The notes under the pieces were generated by a model. The model was given only the letters and a program-made list of their open reading frames with translations. It was not told where the DNA came from and did no database searches. This document shows, in pieces, positions 11,069 to 25,302 of a stretch of 64,000 bases of DNA. Each line of letters opens with the position of its first letter. Position 1 is the stretch's first letter. A program made the translations under genes and the position numbers. The stretch comes from Candidatus Multivoradales bacterium (GTDB taxonomy: Bacteria; Acidobacteriota; Thermoanaerobaculia; Multivoradales; JAHEKO01): contig CBDFIJ010000004.1 of NCBI GenBank assembly GCA_965248055.1, positions 1,280,001 to 1,344,000 on the forward strand, read 5' to 3'.

Positions 11069-11680
11069 CTAGCCGTCGAGGTCCTCCTGCTGTGGCTGCT
11101 CTTGTCCTGGACGGGCAAAAGGAACCACCTTACCTGCCGGGGGCTCTACTTTCCCTGGGTCCGAACCCTGACTTGGCGCATCGATCTTTTCCACTTTTGC
11201 CTCAAAGCGTGAAGCTGGCTCTGAGGTTGATGGCGCTGCCGCAGGCGATCCGCCATTCTCCTCAGATCCTTCTTCCTGATCGTTATCCGTCGACGAGGAA
11301 TCGGTCTCTGCTCCCTGTAACTGCAAACTGCCTTCATCAGTGGTCTCAAACCCGAACTGGGCCGTGGGGTCGGCAAATCCACACACTGCCAACCAAGGCA
11401 CCAAAAGACGCTCGCGGACACCGCCGAACGCCAAGACCACGGAAAAATCGCTCTCAGCCAATTCCAGATCCCAAAATTGATGCTCCAACACGATCGTCAT
11501 CTTCTGTGGATACCGCTCTTTGAGCGCGTCGCTGATTTCGACTTCTGGATGATCGGTCTTGAAACTGACATAGAGCGCGTGACCCTTGGGGATTCCCTGC
11601 TCCGAGACCACTTCGAGTACCTTAGGAATCACCGAAAGCATCCCTTCGACCAACCACTTTTGGTAGTCCAGGCCGCTCAC
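11069..11680 (-). CDS. sspB: SspB family ClpXP adaptor (alphaproteobacterial/DUF1321 type)
   Basis: H.LYVSFKT.HP.V, YPQKMTIVLEHQFWDL, FGG..E.L.VP, F.DP..QFG, acidic tail with GKVV; GTG at 11680 overlaps the upstream TGA. Confidence 0.8.
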   Translation of the reverse strand: MSGLDYQKWLVEGMLSVIPKVLEVVSEQGIPKGHALYVSFKTDHPEVEISDALKERYPQKMTIVLEHQFWDLELAESDFSVVLAFGGVRERLLVPWLAVCGFADPTAQFGFETTDEGSLQLQGAETDSSSTDNDQEEGSEENGGSPAAAPSTSEPASRFEAKVEKIDAPSQGSDPGKVEPPAGKVVPFARPGQEQPQQEDLDG

Positions 11681-13386
11681 GATGATCCACCTTCGCTGGC
11701 TTTGTCGTTTGCTTTCTGATCGGCCTCGACCTTCTCCTCGAAACCCATATGTTGCAAATGGGCCCACACCTGACGCTTTGCCAGCGGCTGCACAAACACC
11801 GGCAATTCTTCCTCGTAGGCGGCCTTGACCAAGCGAGACATCTTGCGTTCGCCGTTATCCCATGCCTCCTGAATCCGACTCTCCCGCCATTGCCGATGCT
11901 TCAACGCGCGCGTGAAATGCTGCCTTCCGTCGAGCAAGGCCGGGCCGTGGGCCGGCAATGCCAGAAAGTGGCTCATCTCCGCAAGACGCGCCAAGGATCG
12001 AAAGTAATCTCCCATGTTGCCATCTGGAGAATCGATAACAATCGTGCTCACACCGGAAATCATGTCACCCGCGATGAGCCAGCGGTCATGGTCACAAGAA
12101 AAACACAAATGGCCAGAAGCATGCCCGGGCGTATGCATAGCCGTGACTTGCAAATCTGGGCCCAAATCTGGATCTCCGATGAGCGTCATCTGCTGGCCGT
12201 CAGCAAGCGTGCGCTCGACTGCAATCTGTCCTTCAAGTCGTTGCGCGGTCTTGGCGTGAGCAGCAATCGGCACTCTCAAGGCACCGGCTAACGCTGCCAC
12301 GCCGCCAACGTGGTCGGGATGGTGGTGGGTCAGCCAGATCTCCTTCACCGCAGCCAGCCCCCCGGGCAACGCAGACAGTGCTGCCAAGAATCGTTGCTGC
12401 TGCTCGGGAAACGGCGACCCCGGATCGACAACTACGCGTTCCCCATTGCCCAAGACAAAACAATTGGTGGTCGCTGCTGGAGGAAGAGTCGGCGTCACTA
12501 ACGGAAACAACAACACCCCGGGCTGAAACTCAATGCGGCGAAACGCGCCGATATTCGCCTCGCTGGGAGTCACTAGGCGTTGCAAGGTCGAATCGTTGGC
12601 GGTCGGATCGCCTTCTGCCGTCTCCCCAGAACCAGCCCCAGAACCAACTCCTGAACCAATCCCAACCTCAGCCCCAATCTCAGCCCCAATCTCAGCCAAG
12701 GCTCGCAAGATGTACAACACCGGCGGCGCCGCCATCACCGCACCGTTTTGCCAACGCTCTATCCCCTCAATCGGTCGAATCCACTCAGCGGTTTCCACCT
12801 CGTGCTGCCACCGCTGCGGCTCAAGCCGGTCAGCATCCAGAAGAAAAAACCGGTTGTCAAAACGCATCGGGCCCAGCGGAGGGGTTAACCACCGTCCGGC
12901 ATAGGTCAGTTTGCTGGCGTCAAAAGGTCCGTATTTATCCACCAGATCCACAATCGTGGCTTCTTGGCTTCGTAAACCATCGAGATCGTCATCCGCCACC
13001 TCAACCAACTTCTCCCCCACCCACCAACCCATCTCCTCCACCAACTCCCTGAGAGCCGTAGCCACCAGCCCCGGGATCATCAAATTCGCTAACTCAATCC
13101 CATCCGTCATCGCTGGAGGCAAAGCACCCCTCGGGTCTGTTCCCGGCGGAATCCGCACCTCCCCAACCACCTCCAACCCAGCATCTGCCGACGCCAGCCC
13201 GCCTCCGGGGAACGCGTACCACCCACCCATGAACCGCTGGCCCCGCGCTCGCCGCATCCACAACACCTCGGCGCGTCCCCCGCGCATCCGATAAGGGATC
13301 ACCGCCGCCGAGGCACGAGGAGGCCGCGGTGCAACAACTGCTAGCCCCTGAGCGGCTTGGAGAACTTTTTCGTAAAGACCGGACAT
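11677..13386 (-). CDS. NUDIX hydrolase fused to an MBL-fold (LACTB2-like) hydrolase
   Basis: FPGG...ALRELVEEMG, WLTP...RFDNRFF; then TPTLPPA.TTN, THHHPDHVGG, HTPGH, PAHG; probable ATG at 13386. Confidence 0.85.
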   Translation of the reverse strand: MSGLYEKVLQAAQGLAVVAPRPPRASAAVIPYRMRGGRAEVLWMRRARGQRFMGGWYAFPGGGLASADAGLEVVGEVRIPPGTDPRGALPPAMTDGIELANLMIPGLVATALRELVEEMGWWVGEKLVEVADDDLDGLRSQEATIVDLVDKYGPFDASKLTYAGRWLTPPLGPMRFDNRFFLLDADRLEPQRWQHEVETAEWIRPIEGIERWQNGAVMAAPPVLYILRALAEIGAEIGAEVGIGSGVGSGAGSGETAEGDPTANDSTLQRLVTPSEANIGAFRRIEFQPGVLLFPLVTPTLPPAATTNCFVLGNGERVVVDPGSPFPEQQQRFLAALSALPGGLAAVKEIWLTHHHPDHVGGVAALAGALRVPIAAHAKTAQRLEGQIAVERTLADGQQMTLIGDPDLGPDLQVTAMHTPGHASGHLCFSCDHDRWLIAGDMISGVSTIVIDSPDGNMGDYFRSLARLAEMSHFLALPAHGPALLDGRQHFTRALKHRQWRESRIQEAWDNGERKMSRLVKAAYEEELPVFVQPLAKRQVWAHLQHMGFEEKVEADQKANDKASEGGSS

Positions 13387-13410
13387 AGGGCCCAGTTTAC
13401 CGATCCTTCC

Positions 13411-13431
13411 TAAGTGCCACCCGAATATTTG
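13411..13431 (+). repeat. Inverted copy of the transposase-associated motif at the island's left boundary
   Basis: taagtgccacccgaatatttg vs reverse complement of the 21449-21480 copy (taagttccacccgaataatgc). Confidence 0.65.
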
Positions 13432-13513
13432 TATTTGAAGAACAGGAAGCATGAGCCCACGCCCATGGGTTGCCAAGAAGCTAGGCAGCCTGGGTTCACT
13501 AGGTAAATCTTTT

Positions 13514-13532
13514 GATGTGTTAACATCTGATG
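13514..13532 (+). promoter_or_regulatory. vapBC-1 operator palindrome overlapping an extended -10 box
   Basis: GATGT-GTTA-ACATC plus CATC-T-GATG and TGnTAACAT; conserved upstream of copy 2 as GATG-TGATAG-CATC-T-GATG. Confidence 0.55.
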
Positions 13533-13533
13533 C

Positions 13534-13776
13534 GTACGCACCACCCTTAACCTCGCCGAAGATATCCTCCTAGCGATCAAAGAACGCGCCCGCCGCCAGG
13601 GTCGTAGCGCCGGGGAGGTACTCTCTGAATTGGCCCGCGAAGCCTTGACTCGCGATCGGGTCGCCGGCGAAGTCGCTGAAGATGGCGTTTTCTACGGTTT
13701 CGAGCCACTCCCCCGCCGCGGCCCTGCGATCTCCAACGAACTGATCGATCAACTGCTGGAGGACGAGCCAGATTGA
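13534..13776 (+). pseudogene. vapB: VapB/CopG-type antitoxin copy 1 lacking a start codon (GTA where copy 2 has ATG)
   Basis: Frame reads (V)RTTLNLAEDILLAIKERARRQG...EDEPD*, homologous to 23348-23590; in-frame TGA at 13528-13530 excludes upstream starts. Confidence 0.7.
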
Positions 13777-14201
13777 TGCGTGCGCTCCTCGACGTCAATG
13801 TGCTTCTCGCCCTGCTCGACGCCGACCATGTCGACCATCGGCTTGCTCGCGCATGGCTCAATCGCGACATCGGACACGGCTGGGCGTCCTGCGCGATCAC
13901 CCAGAATGGTTTTGTCCGCGTCGTGACTCAGGAGCGCTACCCAAGCCCGGTGTCAACGAAGGAAGCGACTCAGAGGCTGCGGCGAGCGACTTCCACCGAG
14001 CATCACCAGTTCCTGCCCTGCGATGCCAGCATCCTCGATGAAGTTATCCTCGCCGACCGCATTCATGGATCGAGACAAGTGACTGATGTGTATCTGCTGG
14101 CTCTCGCCATCGCGCACGGCTGCCGCTTCGTAACCTTCGACCGCTCGGTCCCGCTGTCCGCCGTAGTGGGTGCGGACCCGGAACACCTGCTCACTTTGTA
14201 G
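13776..14201 (+). CDS. vapC: PIN-domain VapC toxin, copy 1
   Basis: LLDVNVLLAL, QVTDVYLLALA, FVTFDR; TGATG overlap with the antitoxin. Confidence 0.9.
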   Translation: MRALLDVNVLLALLDADHVDHRLARAWLNRDIGHGWASCAITQNGFVRVVTQERYPSPVSTKEATQRLRRATSTEHHQFLPCDASILDEVILADRIHGSRQVTDVYLLALAIAHGCRFVTFDRSVPLSAVVGADPEHLLTL

Positions 14202-14250
14202 GGTTCCGGCCCGTAGGTACAGAACCGGGTGCAGAACCGGCCGCCCGCCC

Positions 14251-14340
14251 TCGCATTATTCGGGTGGAACCTATTTGGGGCGGGGCGTCGGGCACGGAGA
14301 TGAGTAAGTGGTAGTGGTTGGACATGAAGGCGAAGGCGTG
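14251..14340 (-). mobile_element. Transposase-associated motif (14251-14278) plus a 56-bp internal transposase fragment (14285-14340) covering the HUH motif
   Basis: tcgcattattcgggtggaacctatttgg; the fragment matches 21207-21262 and encodes [19 protein letters not shown]. Confidence 0.85.
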
Positions 14341-14487
14341 GCAGTGCTCATATGTCATGGACGCATACAGGTTCCCCGAGGAAGCTCTCTACGCTTGCAG
14401 TTTGCGCCGGCTACCCGCTTACGGGAGTTTGTTTAGCCCGGCCGCCCGGTTTCAGTCTGGTAATGTCATTCTCAGGCGGACTCCAGT

Positions 14488-15273
14488 ATGGCTATTAGAT
14501 TCACCGAGGCGTTGGCCGCAGAGTATTCGGGGCGCTACGACTCCTGCGAAATCCGGACGGAGAGGTTTGCCGAGGTGGACCGCGTCGCAGACGCCGTCGT
14601 GGCGAGCAAGAGTCGCTACGAAGCGGCGGCCGGAGGCTTAGGCATCCCATGGTTTTTTGTCGGCGGTATCCACAATCTGGAGAGCAGTCTCCGCGTCGAC
14701 CGCCATCTCCACAATGGTGATCCACTCACCGGTCGTACGGTCCACGTGCCTCCCGGCCGTCCCCCGACCGGCAATCCGCCCTTCACCTGGGAAGAGAGCG
14801 CCGCTGACGCGCTCACCTTCGAACGGCTGGATCGAGTCGATGACTGGTCACTTCCCCGTCTCCTCTACGAAGCCGAAAAATACAACGGTTGGGGCTATCG
14901 TCGCCACCACCCGGAAGTGCTGTCACCCTACCTGTGGAGCTTCACCAACCACTACGAAAAGGGCAAGTACGTGGCCGACGGTCGCTGGTCGGAAACCGCG
15001 GTGTCCAGACAATGCGGTTTCGCGGCCGTGATCAGAAGACTGGAGGAGCGCACCGAGATCCCGCCGCTCGCGGCTCATCCACCCTCCAGGACATTCTTCA
15101 GGTTTTCGCGAATCAGCGCGGAAAAAAGCCGTGTCGTAGACCTGCAGCGGTTCCTGAACACGTTCGACGGGATTCGCCTGCGAGTCGACGGCGCGCCGGG
15201 CCCCAAGACATCCGCCGCTGTAGAGAGGATCTTCGGTGCCTACTTGGAAGGCGACCCGCGCAATGAGGAGTAA
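14488..15273 (+). CDS. Lysozyme-like (COG5526-type) peptidoglycan hydrolase with C-terminal peptidoglycan-binding domain
   Basis: IPWFFVG.IH..ES, LHNGDPLT.RTVHVP.GRP, WEESA.DAL, E.YNG.GY, SPYLWS, GKYVADG; LQRFLN...LRVDG.PGPKT. Confidence 0.8.
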   Translation: MAIRFTEALAAEYSGRYDSCEIRTERFAEVDRVADAVVASKSRYEAAAGGLGIPWFFVGGIHNLESSLRVDRHLHNGDPLTGRTVHVPPGRPPTGNPPFTWEESAADALTFERLDRVDDWSLPRLLYEAEKYNGWGYRRHHPEVLSPYLWSFTNHYEKGKYVADGRWSETAVSRQCGFAAVIRRLEERTEIPPLAAHPPSRTFFRFSRISAEKSRVVDLQRFLNTFDGIRLRVDGAPGPKTSAAVERIFGAYLEGDPRNEE

Positions 15274-15802
15274 GCCGGCGTTGGGAGTCAAGCGTTCGAC
15301 ACCCTTACTCTTGCTCGCCCTGGTCATTGGCGCCTGCAGTGGCCCGCCGTCGAATCAGGCCGTCAAGACTGAGGAAATGCCGCCGGATCAGGCGGCGTCG
15401 GTGACCACGGTCGTCGACGGCGACGGGGACGGCCTATGGGCCACGACCACCGACGGGCGTCAATTGCTTGCAGACGACGGCAAGTACTACGAAGCACGGG
15501 TGTCACCGGACGGACGCTTCATTGCCGCTGACATCGCCGTGTTCAGCAATCTGCAGGTAACGCGGCTTTACCGGCGCCCCTCGGGCTCAGAGCCCTGGCA
15601 GCCGGCAGCCAACGTTTCCGAGACCGCTTGGAAGGCTGCAGCGCAGGCCCAAGAGTTCACAATCGAAGACGTGATCAACCCCCGGACCCGGTTTGTAGCG
15701 TGGTCGGAAGACGGAACCGCCCTCGAACTGGAAGTTTCCGGAACGCTGCCCGACGGCTCCGAGCTGCGCCACACCCATTCTGTGCAGCTCGAAGCCGATT
15801 GA
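15263..15802 (+). CDS. Lipoprotein of unknown function, candidate immunity partner of the hydrolase
   Basis: Hydrophobic leader ending in lipobox IGAC; SPDGR and WSEDG TolB-like turns; start overlaps the hydrolase stop. Confidence 0.6.
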   Translation: MRSKPALGVKRSTPLLLLALVIGACSGPPSNQAVKTEEMPPDQAASVTTVVDGDGDGLWATTTDGRQLLADDGKYYEARVSPDGRFIAADIAVFSNLQVTRLYRRPSGSEPWQPAANVSETAWKAAAQAQEFTIEDVINPRTRFVAWSEDGTALELEVSGTLPDGSELRHTHSVQLEAD

Positions 15803-16029
15803 GGCCCTGCCGGAGTCCCGATCCCCTGCTACGACAATGAGGCGGCGCGAGCTCGTCACCTGACTGGCGCTTCTGTCTGGCGACCTAGCGCCGCTCCATT
15901 CAATGATCCCGGCGGTGACCGTATCCTTTTGCCCCCACGCTTCAGCGGGATCATCTCCACCTTTGACCGCGACAAAATGTCTTGTCGCTATCTTCCGAGC
16001 CTGAGTCGCAGTGAGTTCTCCGTGACTGC

Positions 16030-16391
16030 CTAGAACTTCTCCCGCCAACCGTGCATACGCCCAAGCTCTCGGGCGATATTGCTGTTGAGGTAGCCAACAA
16101 ACTGCGCCATTCGCTGAGCGTCAGGCACAGAGATCAGCATGTGGTAGTGGTTGGACATGAAGGCGAAGGCGTGTATCTCCACCGGGTAGAGCCGCTGCGC
16201 CCTGCCCATGACACCAAGGATCGCGTCGTTGGCTGCTGGTGAGGGCTTTAAGAGATACCGCCCCTGGAAAGTCCGTGTCGTGACTTCAACCAGAGTGTTT
16301 TCGGTCGGAATGAAGCGAAGTCGTCGTCCCATGAAACCAGAGGCGTAAACCGACTCATTCACCTCGCATTATTCGGGTGGAACCTATTTGG
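16030..16391 (-). mobile_element. 5' fragment (~110 codons) of the Y1/RAYT-like transposase with its upstream motif
   Basis: Near-identical to 21121-21480; truncated after WREKF, before the catalytic Tyr. Confidence 0.9.
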
Positions 16392-16404
16392 AACCCATTT
16401 GGGT

Positions 16405-16505
16405 AGAGTATTTTCGGTCGGAATGAAGCGAAGTCGTCGTCCTATGAAAGGAGAGACGTAAACCGACTCGATCACCTCCCATTATTCGGGTGGAACCTAT
16501 TTAGG
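16405..16505 (-). mobile_element. Second, ~100-bp 5' fragment of the same transposase with its upstream motif
   Basis: agagtattttcggtcggaatgaagcgaagtcgtcgtcc...attattcgggtggaacctattt matches 21381-21480. Confidence 0.88.
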
Positions 16506-16584
16506 CTCAGTGGACCCTCTCTTGCGTGATTGTCAAAATCGAGAATAATTGCACTCGTGTTGGATGGTATCTGCTTGATTTGGC

Positions 16585-17397
16585 TTAGTGTTCCACACGG
16601 GGGGCGATGATCGCGTTGCAAGCCCTGATTAGATTTTTTTTGGAGTAATGGAAACCCGTAATCAACGTCATCATGTCCTCCCGTCCCAGGAGACGCCTCG
16701 TGATCTCAGGTACTCCAATTCCTTGATCGCGAAGCCTCCCCACTTCTTCGCGTAAGTTTTCCAGAAATTCGAGCTTTCTCTGGATCGCACTGCGACCCGA
16801 ATTGAGTACGCCCCGATGAGAACAGAAGACTGTTTCAAATTGCAGCTGGAGGATGTCGCGTAAGCTTTGGAGGTGAAGGCGAAGATCCTCGTCTTGTCGA
16901 AGGTATATGGTCTTGGACGATACGTAGAGGTCGCCGGAGAAAAGCCAACCCCGCTCGGGCTCCAAGTAACAAGTCATATCGCTGGAATGCCCGGGAGCTG
17001 ATATAGGAACTAGACGGAACCCACCCGCGAGCTCCAACGCCTCAGGGAGTACTGAAGTCTTGGCGGACCGTGGGCGCCCCCAGACGATGTGCTGGTATGG
17101 GCGGAGAACAAATCCATGGGCGAGCCTACGCCGTGATGCTACAGGCGCGTAAGCTCTAGCTCCGGTAGCGTCTCCGATGGAGGCTAAATTGCCACTGTGA
17201 TCCTCGTGGTGATGAGTGACAATCACTTTCGCAATGTCTCGCTCTTCTATAAAGCCCCTAACCACGGACCACTGGTTAGCCGGTCCGGTATCAATAATGG
17301 CGTCACCTAGACGGTAAAGGACGCAGGTGGTGTTTAGCCTGCCGGCAAATCGCCCGACGCGCAAACCCTCGACATCAGCGTGTTGAAATCGTGACAT
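16585..17397 (-). CDS. MBL-fold metallo-hydrolase
   Basis: IDTG, THHHEDHSGN, APGHS, LFSGDL, FCSH. Confidence 0.85.
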   Translation of the reverse strand: MSRFQHADVEGLRVGRFAGRLNTTCVLYRLGDAIIDTGPANQWSVVRGFIEERDIAKVIVTHHHEDHSGNLASIGDATGARAYAPVASRRRLAHGFVLRPYQHIVWGRPRSAKTSVLPEALELAGGFRLVPISAPGHSSDMTCYLEPERGWLFSGDLYVSSKTIYLRQDEDLRLHLQSLRDILQLQFETVFCSHRGVLNSGRSAIQRKLEFLENLREEVGRLRDQGIGVPEITRRLLGREDMMTLITGFHYSKKNLIRACNAIIAPRVEH

Positions 17398-17439
17398 CCG
17401 TTTCGATTCTCTCGTACGCCGGAAACTTCTTTGGATCCG

Positions 17440-19183
17440 TTACCGGCCTTTGGCATCCATCGGACGTTGTTCGACCGGACCTAGTTGTCTTGCCTCAGCC
17501 CATGAACGTTCTCGTGTGTTAGCTGGAAAACCCGCTCCTGCCAGAGGATCCCTTGGGAAAGGTGGGACGGGTTCAACTCCTTCGGGATACCGCAGAGGAT
17601 CGAAGACTTTCTCGATACGACGAGCGAAGTCGACATAGAACTCGCGATCAGCGAATAGATCCAGCAGAAGGTCTTCATCCAACACCCAATTACCGATCCC
17701 GTCTTCCACATACACTCCTTGAGGAACAAGCATCTCGTCCTCGATCTCTTGAAGGGCAAAGTAATACGGCTTCATGCCCTTCCAGACCTTGCGGTAGATT
17801 CTCCCGACAATCAGTTTCTGGGCTTCTCTCTTGCCACCAAAGCAAAAATCCTCGGCTGTCTCGAAGAGCGCCTTTTGAAGGACGCTGGGAAGCATTCGCT
17901 GTGGAAACGTCACTACGGAGTGGCCGTTCAGGAATCGCGCGGGATATCCTGGTATTCGACGATGGAGGAGTCGCTTCCAGTCTCGCGTTCTTGGTGTGAT
18001 GCCCTGGCAGTAGAGCTGAATGGTGAAGCAGCCGACCTGCTCAGCGAACGTCGCGATCTCGCGAACCGACCGCTCAGTGTCATTGGCGTAACCGGCAATG
18101 AACGACGCAGAAAACCTAAAGTCAAAGCGGCGCAGTCGCTCCGCTGTATCGATGTAGACGGGCATGTCCGAGTCTTTACGCATATCCTCAAGCGTAGCGT
18201 TCTCAACCGACTCAAGACCCATGGAGATGTTCCAAATGCCCGCTTTGCGCATTAGCCGCAGGAACGAATCCGAAAAGCCCTCATTACCATGAGAAAACTG
18301 ATCTGCCCGGCACAAAACGGTGAAAGTTGGCTTACGACTGCGATCCTCAAAATGACGAACGAGTGCTTCAAGAAGCTCCGTTGTTGCGTCGAGGTCAGCT
18401 CCGAAGAGGTTGTCCACAACCATGAAGCGGTCTACCCCGGTGTGCTCGAGTGCGTGACTTACGTCGTGAACAAAGTCCTCGACCGGACGCACGAAATAAC
18501 CGGCTTTGCCAAACAAACTTGTCCACGAGCAGAAGGAGCAAAAGTATGTGCAGCCCCGGGAGGCTTGTACGGGCAACTGAGTGAGGGAGAGCCGCGATTT
18601 TACGTCTCGACTGCCGACAAATGTGGAAAAATCGTAACGGTAGTTAATCTCCGCACGGCTCTGGCGTCCGCTAGAAACTTGCCAATCCCCCATTTCGTCA
18701 CGGTACCAGAGCCCGGGAATAGTGCTAAGCGCCCGATCTCGGGCAGAAGAATCTGCCAGCTCTAGAGCGTTGAGTAGAGGGATGACAGTGTTATCTCCCT
18801 CGTACAGAACAATGACATCAGCGTATCGTTGAGCTTCTTGCGGAAACATGGTGGCGTGCTCACCACCGATAACCAGATCGAACGGACACCGCGCACAAAG
18901 TCGCATCTGATTGACCAGGATTTCGTTTTCGGACCAGGATTTCGTTTTCGGCTGCGGTTGTCGTAAGTCCATTAAGCAACAAGAAACGGGGGTCGGCTTT
19001 GGCAAGCCGATCAGGGCTGATTGCCCCACAATATGGCTCAAAGAGCAAGAAACAGTCATAGTCGGTACGTTCACTAAGGATCGCCGCCATCGTCATCAAG
19101 CCCGAACGCGGCATGGTGATCGAGCTTCCCAGGTTGGGAATTGTTGGCATCATTTCGACCAGAAAAACTTTGTTACTACTCAC
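17440..19183 (-). pseudogene. B12-binding radical SAM protein, frameshifted by a 19-bp tandem duplication
   Basis: N-terminal part (SSNKVFLVE..P...ITMPRSGL) in ORF 18860-19210; GGEHAT, SRGCTYFCSFC, GLES in ORF 17440-19074; duplicated gaccaggatttcgttttcg at 18913-18950. Confidence 0.85.
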
Positions 19184-19271
19184 AGCTATTCTCCTCAACC
19201 AATACCGCAAAAGTCCGCGAAACGGAACCGCGTCAGACAGCTACTCTCGACGAACTGTCGTGCTTCTACGA

Positions 19272-20095
19272 TCACTTCTCCACCACACCGAACAACAGTG
19301 CATGATCCGAGTGCTTGTCGATCCACGCACGCTTTTGAGTCTTCGTATTCTTCTCTGGCCATCCACTCACTTCGACTTCGGCTCCTCCGGCTAAGCTCCG
19401 AATCTTCATCGCTTTGTCGGCAAACACATGGTCAAGCGTGCTTCCCGGAAAATAGTTGTCGCCCCCGTTCCACCAGGTCAAGTCCTGGCTTCGCTGCAGT
19501 GGGCGCATGTTGACTCGATTGAACCTCTTGATAAGTGAATCGATCTCTTCGTTACATGAAAGATCGCTCGTGTTGTTGAACGCCGCATTCAACCCCATAG
19601 TGTTGAGATCCCCTAAGCACAGGAAAAGAGACGTTTCGTTTGGCCCAGCAATCTTGTCGAGTACGCGCTTCAACTTCGCTACATGAGCGAACATGTCGTC
19701 TCGGAGTCCCCACGATCTTGGGTCCGGAAGTGACTTCTCCTTGGAGAAAGAGGATGGGGTAGTCCTTGCTGTCGATCCGCAATGTCGCAAGTGCCCCAGG
19801 TCGCAACGTTGGCACCTTGCTCTTGAACTCTTCGCGCTGGGTGACAAACGACTGGATACTTCTCCGGACACCAACCAGAATCTCCATTCCGCTCTTGGGG
19901 TTTTCGGTGATGGTGAACGCGTGCGAACTCATCTTGGTCATGAGCGTGATTGAACACGCTCTTACCCAAAACCTCGTAGAGCGCAAAGACGTCCGGATTC
20001 TTTGCCTCCAGCACATCAACGATGCATTGCACCCGAGTCGGATCGCAATGGAAGTGCTAAACATTCCAGGACGCAAATGAAAAAAGTTTGACCAT
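19272..20095 (-). pseudogene. Endonuclease/exonuclease/phosphatase-family gene, disrupted
   Basis: MVKLFSFASWNV*HF (nonsense codon), NPDVFALYEV, two frameshifts, LGDLN, LDHVF, SDH spread over three frames. Confidence 0.8.
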
Positions 20096-20509
20096 TCCGT
20101 TCACCTTGACAAACACAAATGCGGCCCGTCTACAAGACCACCCCGCTGCTGGACCTCGGAGCACCCCGACCTCAAGGTCCGTGTTCGGCTGACTGCCCCT
20201 TATATCAAGGAATATGGCGTTTGTCAGCGTCGACGATCACATCGCAGTTCATTCTCTAGCCAATCCACCGGTGGGTGCCGGTGGGTGCCATGCGGGTATT
20301 GAGAACTCTTTGGAGAACAGATCGAAGCATCAATATCCGGATAGATTGGCCAGAAGCTAGCCATCCTTCGTTCCGTTTTAGTATTTCGTAGGCTCGACCT
20401 GCCCGCACACCAAGAAATTCCAACCCAAGCTTCCCCAGTACACACTCCAGCCATTGCGTCCGCCAAAGGAAGCCGATTTGTGGTCTCGTGATAAATGCTG
20501 TCGAGCCGC

Positions 20510-21421
20510 CTACGCGATAAACAGGCTAACAAACGGCCTGGGTGGTGGAAAAGATCCCGAGGGAAAAGCCGCGGTGAGGTTGCCATATCTCAGTTGTTCT
20601 GAAGCGTCGCGATATGCACTCAGGAAGTAATCGTAGGCTCGGTAAAGAGCGCGCCGCATCTTGCGGGTGGCGCAGTGAAACATCGGTGCTGGAGACCTCT
20701 TGAGGCGAGGCGGGCAGTAGGTTGCTGACAAGTCAGGCAATTCGCCCTCCAAGGACTCTGCCTTTGAACTCGAGCCTTCTGCGACCACTAGGTCGATGAG
20801 TTCGCGAACCCGTTGTACTTGCTCTTTGGGCGACCGGTGAGCCCAACAAGGAAGAGAACTGAGGTGGACCCTCTCCTGCGTGAACACCGCTGGGCTGTGG
20901 CCGCGTCGCACTCTCTCCCAGTATTCGTGGGTACGTTTGCGCCATCGTCCTGTGAGCGTACGTCTGCCCTCAGCCAGGGCATTTGCCGAGTGAACACCCG
21001 ACCACTCTCTTGGGTCAGTAACCAGCCCTTCTTTAACTCCCTGCGACAGCAGATACTTCATTCGCCCCTCTTGCGCTGCCTCTTCCTCGCTGACCACAAT
21101 CGCCTGATAGCGCCGACCCCAGAACTTCTCCCGCCAACCGTGCATACGCCCAAGTTCTCGGGCGATATTGCTGTTGAGGTAACCAACAAACTGCGCCATT
21201 CGCTGAGCGTCGGGCACGGAAATGAGCATGTGGTAGTGGTTGGACATGAAGGCGAAGGCGTGAATCTCCACCGGGTAGAGCCGCTGTGCCCTGCCCATGA
21301 CACCAAGAATCGCGTCGTTGGCTGCTGGTGAGGGCTTTAGAAGATATCGCCCCTGGAAAGTCCGTGTCGTGACTTCAACCAGAGTGTTTTCGGCGGGAAT
21401 GAAGCGAAGTCGTCGTCCCAT
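20510..21421 (-). mobile_element. Intact HUH Y1 transposase (IS200/IS605 superfamily, RAYT/TnpA-REP-like)
   Basis: [17 protein letters not shown] (HUH), FWGRRY, KYLLSQGVKEGLV (catalytic Tyr); probable ATG at 21421 (alternative GTG at 21451). Confidence 0.88.
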
Positions 21422-21448
21422 GAAACCAGAGACGTAAACCGACTCAAT

Positions 21449-21480
21449 CACCTTGCATTATTCGGGTGGAACTTATTTGG
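21449..21480 (-). repeat. Motif upstream of the intact transposase (reference copy)
   Basis: caccttgcattattcgggtggaacttatttgg; also at 14251, 16360, 16473 and inverted at 13411. Confidence 0.85.
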
Positions 21481-21618
21481 GCCCTCGGATCTAGGACAAA
21501 AGCTTGACCTAATTCAAGGCTAGCTCTAGTATCCAGGCAAAGCTTTAGCATTCCGAGCGTGAAATCGACGGCTATGTGGCTGTGGGTAGCACTTTTGGAG
21601 AAAAAGGAGTGCTCGAAA

Positions 21619-23097
21619 ATGGAAAATAGATACGTTCCAAGGTTACTAATCTGCTCCATCCTGGCTGCAGTATCGCCAGCAACAACGCAGACCGCAAAGT
21701 GGTTCGAGGATCCAAAGCTCCTTCGAGAATTAGAAGCTGCCGCCGAGAACTGTGGTTCGGACCCAGCAGCGTCCAAAGATCTAAAGACCGCAGCGGAATT
21801 TCTCGAAGATGTTGCCAAAGACTACCGGGAGCAAAGGCTGTTCCAGGGCTCGGCTCAGGTCGCCTTGAGTTCCACTCGGCCGTCAGTCCGAGAATCTACA
21901 GATGACATTCGTAAGGATACTGACGGTGACGGTACCTCCGAAACAACGATTAATACACGGAGAGAAGGTCGGGAAACTATCAATACCAAGATAGAAATTG
22001 CGCGCGGACTCTATCCTGACCGGTTTGAGGCCTCATCAGCCATTGATGTTCGAGTGTCCGACGGAGACATCGTCGAAGACGTGAGCGATCTATCGGTCAG
22101 GTACGGTTTCCACACGAACCCGTGGCTTGAAGTTTTTGCTTCATTGAAGAGGACCAGCAACAACTTGATCAACATAGATCAGCGATACGAAGTTGGCGGT
22201 GGTATCACCCTAGTTTGGCATTCAAGACGTTTTACTTTGGACAAGGACGAACAAAGATGGAGATTGGAAAACCCCAAACCTCGGAAAAAATCTAAGAATC
22301 GGAGTTCAGACCCTAGAAGCCAGGAAGGACCTGAGAGCCGGAGTTATGTCGAGCACAAAGCGCTGTTTTTGAATCCAGATGTGAAGACAAAAAAAGGGGA
22401 AGAAGGTGGCTGGCGGGCGTTGCAACACATTGACCCCACCACATCACTAGAGACGTTCTTACCTCTCTTGCAGAAGTGTGCAATGAAAGCAGCAAATGAG
22501 AAAAGGAGCGGGCTCGAGCTGAGCCAAATCCGGCAGGAAGCGCACAAAGACTGGCAGAAACTTCAAGCAACAAAACGCCTACGGCACTCTAAACTCGGAC
22601 TGGGATTCATTCTTGCGTACAATTACGAGGCTGAGCAGGCAACGCTTAAGAGGACGACGACTCGAAAACTAGGAGAAAACACCTCAAGAACCCTATCAGA
22701 ATCTTATCCTGTTGACTTGTCTCACCCAAGCCTTGTAGTTGGTTGGTTCATCAAATGGAAGCCTTCTCCTCTTTGGGAATTCAATACGGAATGGCAACGC
22801 AAATATGGGCTTTTATTGGGCGGCGAGACATTTTTTCGAGAGACAGTAATTGTGGCTCGCAATGACAATTTTGAGCCGATCTTCGAAGAGGTTGCAAGCT
22901 ACCGAGATAATATTGAATTGCTCGGAACCCTGAAACTTGCGGACTCGGTAGTTGGTCATGTTGGCAGTGTGAAGTTAGGGCTCACTGTCAAGTTTGATCT
23001 CGACAACGCACCGCCGACTTGGAGGCTTGGCCAAGACGGTATCAGTGCGCCGGATGCGCATTACAACGTAGATCTTAATTTGATCGTCGAATGGTAG
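21619..23097 (+). CDS. Secreted, probable outer-membrane beta-barrel protein (DUF481-like)
   Basis: AAGGAG RBS, signal peptide, IDQRYEVGGG, alternating beta-strands, C-terminal LNLIVEW. Confidence 0.55.
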   Translation: MENRYVPRLLICSILAAVSPATTQTAKWFEDPKLLRELEAAAENCGSDPAASKDLKTAAEFLEDVAKDYREQRLFQGSAQVALSSTRPSVRESTDDIRKDTDGDGTSETTINTRREGRETINTKIEIARGLYPDRFEASSAIDVRVSDGDIVEDVSDLSVRYGFHTNPWLEVFASLKRTSNNLINIDQRYEVGGGITLVWHSRRFTLDKDEQRWRLENPKPRKKSKNRSSDPRSQEGPESRSYVEHKALFLNPDVKTKKGEEGGWRALQHIDPTTSLETFLPLLQKCAMKAANEKRSGLELSQIRQEAHKDWQKLQATKRLRHSKLGLGFILAYNYEAEQATLKRTTTRKLGENTSRTLSESYPVDLSHPSLVVGWFIKWKPSPLWEFNTEWQRKYGLLLGGETFFRETVIVARNDNFEPIFEEVASYRDNIELLGTLKLADSVVGHVGSVKLGLTVKFDLDNAPPTWRLGQDGISAPDAHYNVDLNLIVEW

Positions 23098-23347
23098 GCC
23101 TGACTCTCGCAGAGGTGAACTCGGGTTTCGAACAGGTCGCAAAACACTGAGTCCAAACGGACAATCAGGTGGCCGAACTGTCGAACATGAACCCATCAAC
23201 TAGCGCTCGTTCGGTCCCCGAGAAGTGCTCCATGCATGAGGTTTCTGCTGACTACCTGTGAGACTCGACTAAACAGGTCCCAGCCCCGGAGTGGAAAGCA
23301 ACTAGCTTGCTATCAATTCAACCCATCGATGTGATAGCATCTGATGT

Positions 23348-23590
23348 ATGCGCACCACTCTCAACCTCGCCGAAGACATCCTCCTAGCAGTCAAAGAGCG
23401 CGCCCGACGCCAGGGCCAAAGTGCAGGGAAGGTTCTCTCTGATCTTGCTCGGGAGGCGCTAACCCGTGATCAGGTCGCCGACGAAGTCGCTGAAGATGGT
23501 GCTTTTTACGGCTTCGAGCCGCTACCGCGCCGTGGACTGGCCATCTCCAACGACTTAATCGACCAGCTACGCGAAAATGACCCTGACTGA
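23348..23590 (+). CDS. vapB: VapB/CopG-type antitoxin, copy 2
   Basis: MRTTLNLAEDILLAVKERARRQG..AG.V.S.LAR.AL; directly upstream of a PIN toxin. Confidence 0.88.
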   Translation: MRTTLNLAEDILLAVKERARRQGQSAGKVLSDLAREALTRDQVADEVAEDGAFYGFEPLPRRGLAISNDLIDQLRENDPD

Positions 23591-24015
23591 TGCGCGCACT
23601 GCTCGACGTCAATGTACTTCTCGCCCTGCTGGATGCCGACCACGTCGACCATCGGGGCGCTCGCTCGTGGCTCAAGCGCGACATCGCTCTCGGTTGGGCG
23701 TCGTGCGCGATCACCCAAAACGGCTTCGTTCGTGTCGTGACTCAAGAGCGCTACCCCAGCCCAGTTTCGACCAAGGAAGCTACTCACAGGCTGCGGCGGG
23801 CGACTGACACAGAACATCACCAGTTCTTGCCCTCGGATATCAGTATTCTCGATGAGGTTGTTCGCGCCAATCGAATCCACGGATCAAGACAGGTCACCGA
23901 TGTCTACTTGCTAGCTCTGGCAGTCGAGCATGGTTGCCGTTTTGTGACCTTTGATCGATCGGTCCCACTCTCCGCCGTCGTGGGCGCCAAAGCGAAACAC
24001 CTGGTGACTCTCTAA
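23590..24015 (+). CDS. vapC: PIN-domain VapC toxin, copy 2
   Basis: Same motifs as copy 1; 18 differences over 141 aa by manual count. Confidence 0.9.
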   Translation: MRALLDVNVLLALLDADHVDHRGARSWLKRDIALGWASCAITQNGFVRVVTQERYPSPVSTKEATHRLRRATDTEHHQFLPSDISILDEVVRANRIHGSRQVTDVYLLALAVEHGCRFVTFDRSVPLSAVVGAKAKHLVTL

Positions 24016-24114
24016 AGCTCAGCCCGGTATAGCCGCGTTCTCCGAATAGACCGACACCAGATATGCCAGCCTCGGGGTCTCGCGACATTCAGCCGGTTCG
24101 ATTACGATTCCCCC

Positions 24115-25302
24115 ATGCCCCACTCCCCCAAGTTCGCCGCTGCTCTCGATGACGTAACAGGTTCGGTCTACACCACCCTCGCAAAAAAACTCGCCAGCCA
24201 CCAAGGTGAGGTGTATTCGTTCCACGTTGGGGACACTTGGATGGAGCCGGCAGAGGGGTGTCGGATGGAGGATTTGCGGGTCGCGGAGAACCCTGGGATG
24301 CATCGATATACCGCGCCGCAGGGGCATCCGGAGTTGTTGTCGACGGTGCGGGCGGAGTTGGGACGGCGGCATGGTTGGGACTTGGCGCCGGATCAGCTGC
24401 TGATCGCGGCGGGAGCGACGGGGGCGCTGGGGGCGGTGGCCGGGGCGATTCTGGATCCGGGGGATGAGGTGTTGTTGGCTGCACCGTACTGGCCACTGAT
24501 TGCTGGCATTGTGCGTTCGTTTCGCGGCGTGCCAGTCGATGTGCCGGTGTTTGTGCCGCAGCTTCACGGGGACGAGATCATCGCTGCCCTGGAGGCAGCC
24601 ACCACAGACAGGACGGTTGCGGTGTACTGGAACACCCCTAACAACCCGTCAGGCTGCGCACTGACGGCGGACGAGGTGGCGGCGATCAGTGCCTGGGCGC
24701 GCGAGCGCAATTTGTGGATCTTGGCTGACGAGGTGTACGAGGCCTACCAGTTTGGGGCTGCATTGTCTGGAACGCCAGTCAGACCAGCTTATGGTTTCGC
24801 GCCGGAGCGCACCTTCTCGACGCACTCATTTTCCAAGACCTTCGGCATGGCGGGCAATCGCTGTGGCTATGTGGTGGGTCCGGGTGAGGCGATCGAGGCC
24901 GCGCGCAAGATCAGCACCCATACTTTCTACTCGACGCCAACCGCCTCCCAGCTCGCTGCAATTCGCACCCTGACTCTGCCAGCGGCCACCGAGTGGGTAG
25001 CTTCGGCGCGAGCAAAGTATCAAGAGGTCGGAACGCGCTGTGCCCAGCTGTTGGGTGTACCAGCACCGCAGGGGTCGACCTTCTTGTTTCTGGATGTCGC
25101 AGACTGCTTGGACGCTGGAAATGGCAATAGCCTCGAGAGGCTCCTGGAAGACTTGGCCGACTTCGGCCTGTTTCTGGCTCCGGGCCCGAGTTTCGGTCCC
25201 TACCCCAATCATGTGCGGATGTGCTTCACCGCCACGCCTCCCGAAGTTACATTGCGTGGCGCAGAGATCTTGGCTCGGGAGCTGGCTGGACGTCGCAATT
25301 AG
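24115..25302 (+). CDS. PLP-dependent aminotransferase, class I/II
   Basis: NTPNNPSG, DEVYE, SFSKTFGMAGNRCG, VRMCF. Confidence 0.88.
   Translation: MPHSPKFAAALDDVTGSVYTTLAKKLASHQGEVYSFHVGDTWMEPAEGCRMEDLRVAENPGMHRYTAPQGHPELLSTVRAELGRRHGWDLAPDQLLIAAGATGALGAVAGAILDPGDEVLLAAPYWPLIAGIVRSFRGVPVDVPVFVPQLHGDEIIAALEAATTDRTVAVYWNTPNNPSGCALTADEVAAISAWARERNLWILADEVYEAYQFGAALSGTPVRPAYGFAPERTFSTHSFSKTFGMAGNRCGYVVGPGEAIEAARKISTHTFYSTPTASQLAAIRTLTLPAATEWVASARAKYQEVGTRCAQLLGVPAPQGSTFLFLDVADCLDAGNGNSLERLLEDLADFGLFLAPGPSFGPYPNHVRMCFTATPPEVTLRGAEILARELAGRRN

Follow-up and report, generated by a model that had tools for sequence, protein, structure and literature searches.

The stretch of DNA analysed here (the window) comprises 64,000 nucleotides of contig CBDFIJ010000004.1 from a Candidatus Multivoradales bacterium, and the text concerns a 10.7-kb island at positions 13406-24097 of the window, situated in the short divergent spacer between a gene for a NUDIX and metallo-beta-lactamase (MBL)-fold fusion protein and an aminotransferase gene. 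The island holds an intact gene for a HUH/Y1 transposase (copy A), truncated pieces of three further, broken copies, repeated copies of the motif that marks the ends of the transposase element, and blocks of foreign genes between and beside them. Judged from its sequence and from its relatives, the interval is an acquired, mosaic and lineage-specific island, which we read, with modest confidence, as the outcome of transposon copies piling up in an insertion hotspot and subsequently decaying. The parts of the island that derive from the element are as follows.

13410-13434, plus strand: inverted (right-end-oriented) motif copy, weight-matrix score 25.6 bits
14249-14278, minus strand: left-end motif copy of 30 nt with no transposase sequence after it, weight-matrix score 31.3 bits
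14253-14278, minus strand: motif match with 0 mismatches
14280-14340, minus strand: 61-nt piece of the transposase frame, codons ~64-84, with the HUH motif (identity 56/61 to 21202-21262, 54/61 to 16113-16173)
16029-16393, minus strand: left-end motif, 5' untranslated region and codons 1-110 of a second copy (344/365 identical to copy A)
16366-16391, minus strand: motif match with 0 mismatches
16405-16506, minus strand: left-end motif, 5' untranslated region and ~14 codons of a third copy (91/102 identical to copy A)
16479-16504, minus strand: motif match with 2 mismatches
20270-20303, plus strand: candidate degenerate right end of copy A, GGTGCCATGCGGGTATTGAG, 207 nt past the stop codon and below 9 bits
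20510-21451, minus strand: complete 313-codon transposase frame, Pfam Y1_Tnp
20510-21421, minus strand: intact HUH/Y1 transposase, copy A, 303 aa from M11 (MGRRLRF), with the likely ATG at 21421
21451-21480, minus strand: left-end motif of copy A, weight-matrix score 27.7 bits
21455-21480, minus strand: motif match with 1 mismatch

When the window was scanned with a 26-mer of the motif allowing three mismatches or fewer, four matches were obtained, all on the minus strand, compared with 0 matches in 100 shuffles, and the whole 3.4-Mb genome contained the same four sites at this stringency and no others. The inverted copy at 13410-13434 has diverged too far to be found by mismatch counting and was scored with a weight matrix derived from the genome-wide motif copies, with the reversed genome as control and a threshold of 9 bits; the control has one site at 18 bits or above, and we regard the inverted copy as genuine. 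Its outer edge coincides with the left island boundary within about 5 nt. The five motif positions and orientations listed in the initial annotation were thus all present within 2-6 nt of the places given there and far above chance, and the complete transposase and the 5' pieces of about 360 bp and 100 bp reported with them were found as a full gene and as pieces of 363 nt and 102 nt.

The consensus of the motif is aGGTnCCAsssGAwTwtt, about 25 nt in length, and the copies at the locus have diverged from each other by 5-11%. In an alignment of the 5' regions of 13 paralogues, similarity begins abruptly at the motif, about 72 nt upstream of the ATG, and the element as a whole is laid out as a left-end motif, a leader of about 70 nt, a gene for a 303-aa HUH/Y1 protein and an inverted motif that normally lies 170-290 nt past the stop codon. 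We take the motif to be the conserved terminus of a mobile element about 1.2 kb long and to be cognate to the Y1 enzyme, so that the earlier proposal of a repeated motif tied to the transposase is borne out.

It is extremely improbable that the array is an assembly artefact or that the motif is no more than a promoter or regulatory box shared by the gene family. A short-read assembler could be misled by repeats of 56-363 nt, but the repeat copies differ by enough (the same 5-11%) to be distinguishable, and unitigs of four short-read runs cover positions 12500-25000 at even depth, breaking only at repeats, and span each novel junction with no alternative joint; all four runs are from one sample, probably the source sample, and the result is compatible with the assembly but is not independent long-read proof of the block order. 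The fixed distance of the motif upstream of the ATG is as would be expected of a promoter, but no sigma-70-like site overlaps the motif (a scan of the region gave 1 site compared with 4.4 expected), and the motif also occurs inverted past genes, inside a coding region of the sister species G001 and at the exact edge of duplicated units.

No shared hairpin was found at the motif when DNA folds were computed for eight left-end regions on both strands, and the sole recurring fold in these left ends is a small CGTC...GACG stem across the start codon. This CGTC(n)GACG stem may enclose the start codon in most paralogues (window positions 21425-21395 on the minus strand, and the leaders of the paralogues), has 6 bp in copy B and, by analogy, may serve translational control; a leader that folds over the start codon is a trait of IS200. 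A conserved 4-nt target sequence before the left end was considered and rejected, being inseparable from the conserved outer bases of the element itself (cccTAAA). Several element ends, in this genome and in another, show a tandem duplication of the outer half of the motif, for example as CCAAATGGGTT followed by CCAAATAGGTT or as GGTGGGTGCC twice (window 16393-16403 and 20270-20289; contig C4 2375050-2375090 and 1483703; right flanks of loci L068 and L069), and this pattern suggests repeated cutting and rejoining at a single point within the motif.

The protein encoded by copy A matched Pfam Y1_Tnp (PF01797) with 39.8 bits, compared with a gathering threshold of 23, and no other Pfam match at E<=0.01 was obtained in searches with the whole protein. 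The best NCBIfam model was REP_Tyr_transpos (NF047646) with 52.8 bits, missing the cut-off of 80, and the IS200 model (NF033573) gave 24.1 bits, under its cut-off of 55. The HUH motif (H72-Y-H74) and the catalytic Y133 (YLLSQ) are invariant in 35 aligned homologues, with the tyrosine motif reading YLLSQG or YLLSHG across the alignment, and they align to the HUH motif and Tyr132 of ISDra2 TnpA; a sequence search of the PDB with copy A returned weak ISDra2 matches only (E 0.058). In the AlphaFold model (pLDDT 83) the nearest PDB fold was 4er8, the E. coli TnpA-REP (E 1.4e-6), and matches at probability 1.00 were obtained to 4er8, 2xm3, 2f4f and 2vjv, ranking TnpA-REP first and then the ISDra2, IS200 and IS608 transposases (IS200/IS605 TnpA). 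The C-terminal half of about 160 aa is confidently modelled and had no PDB match by Foldseek. Sequence and predicted fold together identify copy A as a RAYT-like HUH/Y1 protein, in agreement with the initial annotation (Y1_Tnp match, conserved HUH and Tyr, TnpA-REP fold).

Between copy A and the copy at the same site in G001 the protein identity is 75%, with non-synonymous divergence (dN) of 0.16 and saturated synonymous divergence (dS), and the pair is under purifying selection. A protein search retrieved 816 relatives of about 300-313 aa, some of them labelled at source as 'REP element-mobilizing transposase RayT', and 20 of 30 loci came from species genomes titled Thermoanaerobaculia or Acidobacteriota in a scan of species-genome contigs from lineages other than that of the window. 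Matches at E<=1e-10 were present in 27/31 genomes of the order (a set that includes the unpublished genome G002), with a maximum of 24 matches per genome.

In the 363-nt piece (16029-16391 compared with 21118-21480, 94.8% identity) codon W111 has changed from TGG to TAG, and homology to copy A stops right there. The first 100 codons of this piece and copy A differ by 14 nucleotide changes and 1 amino acid change (dS 0.21, dN/dS 0.02), and because the changes are nearly all synonymous the piece would have been a working gene through almost its entire divergence and truncated late. This suggests either two long-lived functional copies or a second allele imported from a related lineage. The 102-nt piece (16405-16506 compared with 21381-21482, 89% identity) has a mutated start codon (ATG to ATA) and is interrupted by the left end of the 16029-16393 copy, with an 11-nt duplication of the left half of the motif at 16393-16403. 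On the sense strand the 61-nt piece is immediately upstream of the motif at 14249-14278, an order which indicates that a left end was joined into a transposase frame. The earlier description of this site as a 56-bp internal piece beside the fourth motif was right as to its presence (61 nt, 56/61 identical); the site is not a 5' piece with an internal deletion, since the two parts of 14249-14340 stand in permuted order.

In total the left end is joined to four different flanks, always at the identical nucleotide, C(C/T)AAATA, and 2 of these 4 joints are located within older transposase frames, at codons ~14 and ~84. We take the common joint nucleotide to be the mark of breakage and joining at the element end. 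Two ideas about the break in the 363-nt piece were tried and rejected: a pseudo-right-end within the gene, CGGTTGGCGG, has a spacing that does not match the end of the paralogues F and G, and a common breakpoint near codon 111 shared with locus L047 of another genome is not tenable given that the breaks are about 8 nt apart and an inverted motif follows the break only in L047. The candidate right end of copy A at 20270-20303 has a tandem 10-mer (GGTGGGTGCC twice) on its outer side, and its distance of 207 nt from the stop codon agrees with the norm of the family.

The flanking genes and the foreign genes of the island are listed below.

11677-13386, minus strand: core flank, NUDIX and MBL-fold fusion gene (Pfam Lactamase_B, NUDIX, BLACT_WH)
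13534-14201, plus strand: vapBC-1, with vapC at 13773-14201 (Pfam PIN)
14488-15802, plus strand: block I cargo, a 261-aa protein and a 188-aa open reading frame (ORF), no Pfam or NCBIfam match
16585-20095, minus strand: block II cargo, Pfam and NCBIfam matches
16585-17397, minus strand: MBL-fold hydrolase of block II (Pfam/NCBIfam)
17440-19074, minus strand: B12-binding radical-SAM enzyme of block II (Pfam/NCBIfam)
~19272-20095, minus strand: endonuclease/exonuclease/phosphatase (EEP) pseudogene of block II, beside copy A
21559-23097, plus strand: block III cargo, a 512-aa protein with a DUF481-like outer-membrane lead (Atlas 0.93) and no Pfam match
23348-24015, plus strand: vapBC-2, intact pair, direct repeat of vapBC-1 (Pfam PIN)
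24115-25302, plus strand: core flank, class I/II aminotransferase gene (Pfam Aminotran_1_2; 85% amino acid identity in G001)

The NUDIX-MBL gene likely starts at the ATG at 13386, and its open frame extends to 13476. The GC content is 60-65% in block I, 51-55% in block II and 48-51% in block III, compared with 58-63% in the flanks and 57-59% in the transposase sequences. There are one to three genes per block, in either orientation and presumably under promoters of their own. For the 261-aa protein of block I a peptidoglycan-binding or lysin-like lead was obtained from the language-model Atlas (0.96-0.99 to PG_binding_1 clusters), and the 188-aa ORF (15236-15802) is lipoprotein-like if started at the internal ATG at 15263 (signal peptide, then ...LVIGAC). 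The frame of the EEP pseudogene is broken by an in-frame stop following ...ASWNV and by two or more frameshifts, and the radical-SAM gene was found in 0/30 relatives at E<=1e-20. Of the cargo named in the initial annotation, vapBC (present twice), the MBL and the radical-SAM gene were recovered, EEP is present as a pseudogene, and the hydrolase and the beta-barrel depend on the language-model leads. The two vapBC copies, at opposite ends of the island, share 79% nucleotide identity over 682 nt (23328-24009). Where vapB-2 has an ATG, vapB-1 has GTA (13530-13540 compared with 23344-23350), with an in-frame TGA just upstream and the vapC-1 frame open, and by sequence this toxin copy may depend on the second antitoxin or be dead.

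Each block is bordered by the motif on a single side, no copy being present at the remaining boundaries (14341, 16028, ~20100-20270 and 24097), and block III and vapBC-2 are situated outside the element ends. No recombinase besides the Y1 gene was found in the island by Pfam scan, no block or cargo-bearing unit of the island was found a second time in the genome by self-comparison, and no tRNA that could be an integration target is present in the window. The view that the element units separate unrelated cargo is supported in that the island is mosaic and acquired and its block boundaries lie at element copies.

The history of the site was examined in relatives. Homology with the sister species G001 stops at about 13405-13409 and picks up at 24098. 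The two flanking genes are divergent neighbours on a single contig in 15 of 18 relatives of the same family; the gap between the matched stretches is at most 150 nt in 8 of these (one being the unpublished G002), 0.6-2.7 kb in 6, 7.6 kb in G001, which is of the same genus, and 10.6 kb in the genome studied here. In the six relatives with a gap of 0.6-2.7 kb, no motif above 12 bits was present in the gap. G001 carries the same element at the same site and in the same orientation, beside the NUDIX-MBL gene, with 80-81% identity over the 365-nt 5' region, and beyond the left end of this element lies a 6.4-kb block of 51% GC with genes for a pentapeptide-repeat protein, an ABC transporter and hypothetical proteins, none of which was found in the present genome apart from generic similarity of the ABC ATPase. 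The comparison of this interval across relatives, which the initial annotation had called for, hence went both ways: the cargo of the sister species abuts the left end of the element, but its far side has no motif.

In the same species the NUDIX-MBL gene itself carries a motif copy, in frame within its first ~45 codons (L019:2551-2575), where 38 nt stand in place of 20 nt. This copy is the inverted partner of the left end of the adjacent element (19/19 nt) and lies 232 nt past the stop codon of the transposase.

It could be argued that the Y1 copies are bystanders, the spacer being a general recombination hotspot in which homologous or homology-facilitated recombination stacked island versions from related strains, each with a different allele of the resident element. 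The divergence of the 363-nt piece from copy A under purifying selection (dS 0.21, dN/dS 0.02) is what would be expected of alleles from two lineages, the six relatives with 0.6-2.7 kb between the matched stretches have no motif above 12 bits there, and vapBC occurs at both island ends with 79% identity. Nevertheless, four flanks joined at the identical left-end nucleotide point to element-end breakage and not to homologous exchange, two of these joints are inside transposase frames, and a metagenome scan for close strains with the A-type motif returned two loci, both from unrelated organisms. We consider this explanation unlikely.

The behaviour of the element elsewhere in the genome was also examined. 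There are 9 full-length paralogues and 9 fragments, the full-length ones mostly sharing 60-75% amino acid identity, with closer pairs F/G (99.9% nucleotide identity) and C/D and H/I (about 96%). Inverted motif variants are present about 170-270 nt past the stop codon in copies C, D, E, H and I. In loci from distant Thermoanaerobaculia metagenome-assembled genomes (MAGs), with about 50% amino acid identity, the same motif lies upstream of the gene, and 5 of 12 loci examined (L027, L029, L032, L034 and L036) have an inverted copy about 246-324 nt beyond the matched part of the gene. Genome-wide, 69 motif copies of at least 16 bits were counted, compared with 2 in the control, and for 56 of them another copy lies within 5 kb (12.9 on average and 27 at most under random placement), including pairs about 45 nt apart at C4 1395-1400k. 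The copies form about eight clusters, and in most of these Y1 genes or fragments lie alongside other genes linked to mobility or conflict (Mutator, IS630-like and IS110 transposases, Rhs/PKD fragments, a TIR-domain protein and Mrr). When 14 pairs of copies in the relatives G011, G023 and G026 were compared, 7 matched and were alike over 960-1343 nt only (3 at 97.5-99.9% and 4 at 84.7-95.1% identity); as the matching stretches end by 1.34 kb, the normal mobile unit is the bare element with no cargo. Taken together, these data show that the element family is mobile and that its end motif also spreads alone.

The pattern of a left end with a 5' fragment recurs in another genome (L029, L047). At L047:2950-3350, in another Thermoanaerobaculia MAG, a left end and the first ~114 codons are followed within ~12 nt by an inverted motif, GTTCGGCAGGCACCTAT, and we interpret this as an internally deleted mini-element. 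At L060/L061 (C4 1384369, 1385742, 1388827 and 1394955) four repeat copies start with a left-end-type motif that abuts the middle of Rhs (YD-repeat) coding sequence, and two of the four have 3' fragments of a Y1 gene on the other side, from residues 169 and 220; by this arrangement it is probably a second locus where genes were cut by motif joints. At L058 (C4 684471-685746) five motif copies share one orientation, and a Y1 gene is absent from the surrounding 3 kb; two of the five are 50-60 nt upstream of small ORFs (107 aa and 276 aa), which equals the spacing upstream of the transposase ATG, and a third is 162 nt upstream of a DUF4440/SnoaL-like ORF. The end motif in turn appears to be the target of an IS110-family element of 1.4 kb (DEDD transposase), which splits it between GTGCCAG and CyGATT at L060:1047-2443 (= G000 C4 1379047-1380443). 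Further copies of this family are located at C4 1144161-1145554, 2104273-2105669 and 804836-806096, and remnants of its 3' end adjoin more motif copies at C4 683.4k and 1487.9k. Some IS110 elements target REPs likewise. The contigs C1-C3 of G000 (14.8, 16.7 and 28.4 kb) have 39-43% GC compared with 57% for the chromosome and may be plasmids, phage or contamination.

The common stretch of the paralogues F and G, 3266 nt in length (99.9% identical), begins with GAAAGTGCCAG and ends with CTGGCACCT, which is an inverted outer half-motif, and the unit edges read inverted A(A/G)GTGCCAG. The duplicate passes a first right-end-like site at about +270 and stops at a second, 2.3 kb beyond the gene, and the unit thereby carries about 0.65 kb of extra DNA and a nested IS110 element. 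Most of the extra DNA is this IS110-family element, inserted into the right-end motif; the 0.65 kb was examined as possible cargo and rejected as such, since it has one unannotated 107-aa ORF and no recognisable gene.

Such a unit raises the possibility that genes are captured by the Y1 enzyme through read-through (one-ended) transposition, in which a decayed right end is replaced by the next inverted motif downstream. The DNA between would become a passenger, and repeated rounds at one site would build an island; the segment 13410-21480 would then be a nested set of four units with one common right end. Several features of the locus speak for such capture. The right end of copy A is degenerate and falls under the weight-matrix threshold, the only strong inverted motif (13410) is at the left island boundary, the block boundaries lie at element copies, and the transposase copies are host-like in GC content but blocks II and III are not. 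The F/G duplicate, moreover, does run beyond a first right-end-like site to a second, taking extra DNA with it. On the other hand, block III and vapBC-2 as well as the entire foreign block of G001 are outside the element ends, 0/7 of the matching pairs in G011, G023 and G026 exceed 1.34 kb, no block of the island is duplicated in the genome and several cargo genes are dead. The extra DNA of F and G is without a recognisable gene, and since the IS110 element targets the motif, it may have inserted into the two copies independently. Gene capture of this kind is possible but doubtful. We find it rather unlikely that, in general, the Y1 elements of Thermoanaerobaculia flanked by terminal inverted repeats (TIRs) are gene-gathering devices besides being selfish repeats, homing to resident ends, reading through to the next inverted motif when a right end decays and stacking foreign DNA. 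We are equally sceptical of a nested, potentially mobile composite at 13410-21480 with four alternative left ends and one common right end, which would be a HUH/Y1 counterpart of ISCR-type capture.

The initial annotation had gone further and proposed an integron-like acquisition platform; the motif would then be a recombination site where the Y1 enzyme inserts and excises gene cassettes. This agrees with the recurrence of the motif at block boundaries in one orientation, with the ability of motif-only units to insert alone (e.g. the 38-nt segment in the NUDIX-MBL gene of G001) and with other loci in which motifs run in the same orientation with small ORFs between them. However, the motif borders only a single side of each block, the blocks contain one to three genes in mixed orientation, foreign DNA lies outside the ends and the elements of the relatives have no cargo. 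In addition most motif copies are attached to transposase sequence and are not bare sites, their divergence is 5-11% and one has a dead start codon, and the island is without an integrase or second recombinase. We therefore do not uphold the proposal, which is very improbable.

On the reading we prefer on balance, in which transposons piled up at an insertion hotspot and later decayed, events would have proceeded in the following way. The TIR-flanked Y1 element probably lands preferentially at or within resident copies, as is suggested by the clustering and the joints, and for this reason copies would accumulate, with later arrivals truncating earlier ones and with deletions and mutations completing the decay. 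Signs of decay are the ATG to ATA change in the 102-nt piece, the stop at W111 in the 363-nt piece, the EEP pseudogene and the absence of a start codon in vapB-1. The foreign blocks would mostly have come as ordinary hotspot insertions or have been dragged along with arriving element copies, and we do not think that they entered by a dedicated cassette-exchange mechanism.

Several observations fit this reading less well. The block boundaries match the element copies more neatly than random hotspot insertion suggests. The degenerate right end of copy A, together with the sole strong inverted motif exactly at the island boundary, is how a read-through, cargo-carrying unit would be expected to look. 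The 363-nt piece was not cut at the time of a local duplication, which a pile-up does not predict, and the 3' remainders of the interrupted copies, which nested insertion should have left downstream, are absent from the island, where only the 3' transposase sequence of copy A is present. Finally, preferential landing at resident copies could be mimicked by survivorship bias, since an insertion into a dead element is neutral and hence persists.

With regard to known systems, the element fits a known but neglected class, TIRYT/TIRtron, of which it would be a well-delimited new member, and the suggestion that the locus represents an undescribed system is not supported, as a Y1 gene between inverted motifs corresponds to that class. 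This assignment is based on the published description of the class. In that description a TIRtron encodes a TIRYT, a Y1 gene between non-palindromic inverted repeats that form a clustered family, and a sharply defined Acidobacteria group is recognised among the TIRYTs (Di Nocera, De Gregorio & Rocco 2013, PMC3733652); in Quentin et al. 2018 (PMC6006769), TIRYT corresponds to subclass 2.1 and the class-2 tyrosine motif is given as Y---NP (Table 1). The present element agrees in having a RAYT-like HUH/Y1 gene flanked by inverted repeats that are neither REPs nor palindromes (G001 with 19/19 nt; C, D, E, H, I and F/G), a moderately abundant repeat family often in dimers or clusters (69 copies, 56 clustered) and several differing gene copies per genome. 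It differs in its motif, which is aGGTnCCAsssGAwTwtt and not GGGGWSAS, the latter being stated for some TIRs only, and in its tyrosine motif Y---Q (YLLSQG) instead of Y---NP, and the C-terminal HTH or Bac_DnaA_C-like domain of subclass 2.1 was not detected in it by whole-protein Pfam and Foldseek searches. In the literature searched the terms TIRYT and TIRtron occurred only in Di Nocera 2013 (PMC3733652) and Quentin 2018 (PMC6006769), and within the consulted parts of these two papers no experiment is reported, nor are arrays with foreign blocks, self-nesting or IS110 targeting described for TIRtrons.

A likeness to RAYT/TnpA-REP is also evident, in the best fold (4er8) and best NCBIfam model (REP_Tyr_transpos), in a short inverted repeat that flanks the gene and also spreads alone, and in the ~75% identical protein under purifying selection at the same locus of the sister species. 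RAYT/TnpA-REP proteins with their REP and REPIN repeats are said to have been treated by Nunvar 2010 and by Bertels & Rainey 2011, and Bertels 2017 reportedly gives about one RAYT gene copy per genome; REP hairpins are palindromic and have a GT[AG]G tag. By contrast, the present repeats lack both a hairpin-forming palindrome and a GTAG tag, there are 9 full copies and 9 fragments here and up to 23-24 matches in relatives instead of about 1 gene, the score of 52.8 bits is under the family cut-off of 80, and the C-terminal half of the protein, an additional ~160 aa, matches no structure. With the TnpA of IS200/IS605 (IS608, ISDra2) the element shares the HUH/Y1 fold, the Y---Q signature and a small autonomous unit of ~1.2 kb, but it scores 24 where the cut-off is 55, its protein has twice the length, its ends consist of inverted repeats with no conserved hairpin instead of subterminal hairpins, and most copies in this genome are just 60-75% identical.

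One-ended rolling-circle capture by IS91/ISCR may offer a functional analogy, with a HUH enzyme, one end kept, variable DNA adjoining and partial element copies repeated between unrelated gene blocks, although those enzymes are of the Y2 rolling-circle class and not Y1, and the element here has no ori/ter ends. The likeness to integrons is superficial only, consisting in a short site that recurs between unrelated genes near a recombinase gene; here there is no IntI tyrosine recombinase and no attI/attC pair per cassette, the orientation is mixed, the blocks are multi-gene and the sites carry transposase fragments.

On present evidence the island is a rather ordinary, if instructive, pile-up of mobile elements. 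TIR-flanked RAYT-like genes are common (816 relatives; 27/31 genomes of the order), and the locus provides a clean natural series, with an intact enzyme, an end motif of ~25 nt conserved across the bacterial class, joints that are precise at the element end, a copy at the same site in the sister species and an IS110-type element that targets the motif. Gene capture by read-through is a tentative possibility that we rate as rather improbable, but if true it would add a Y1 route to the ways in which islands are built.

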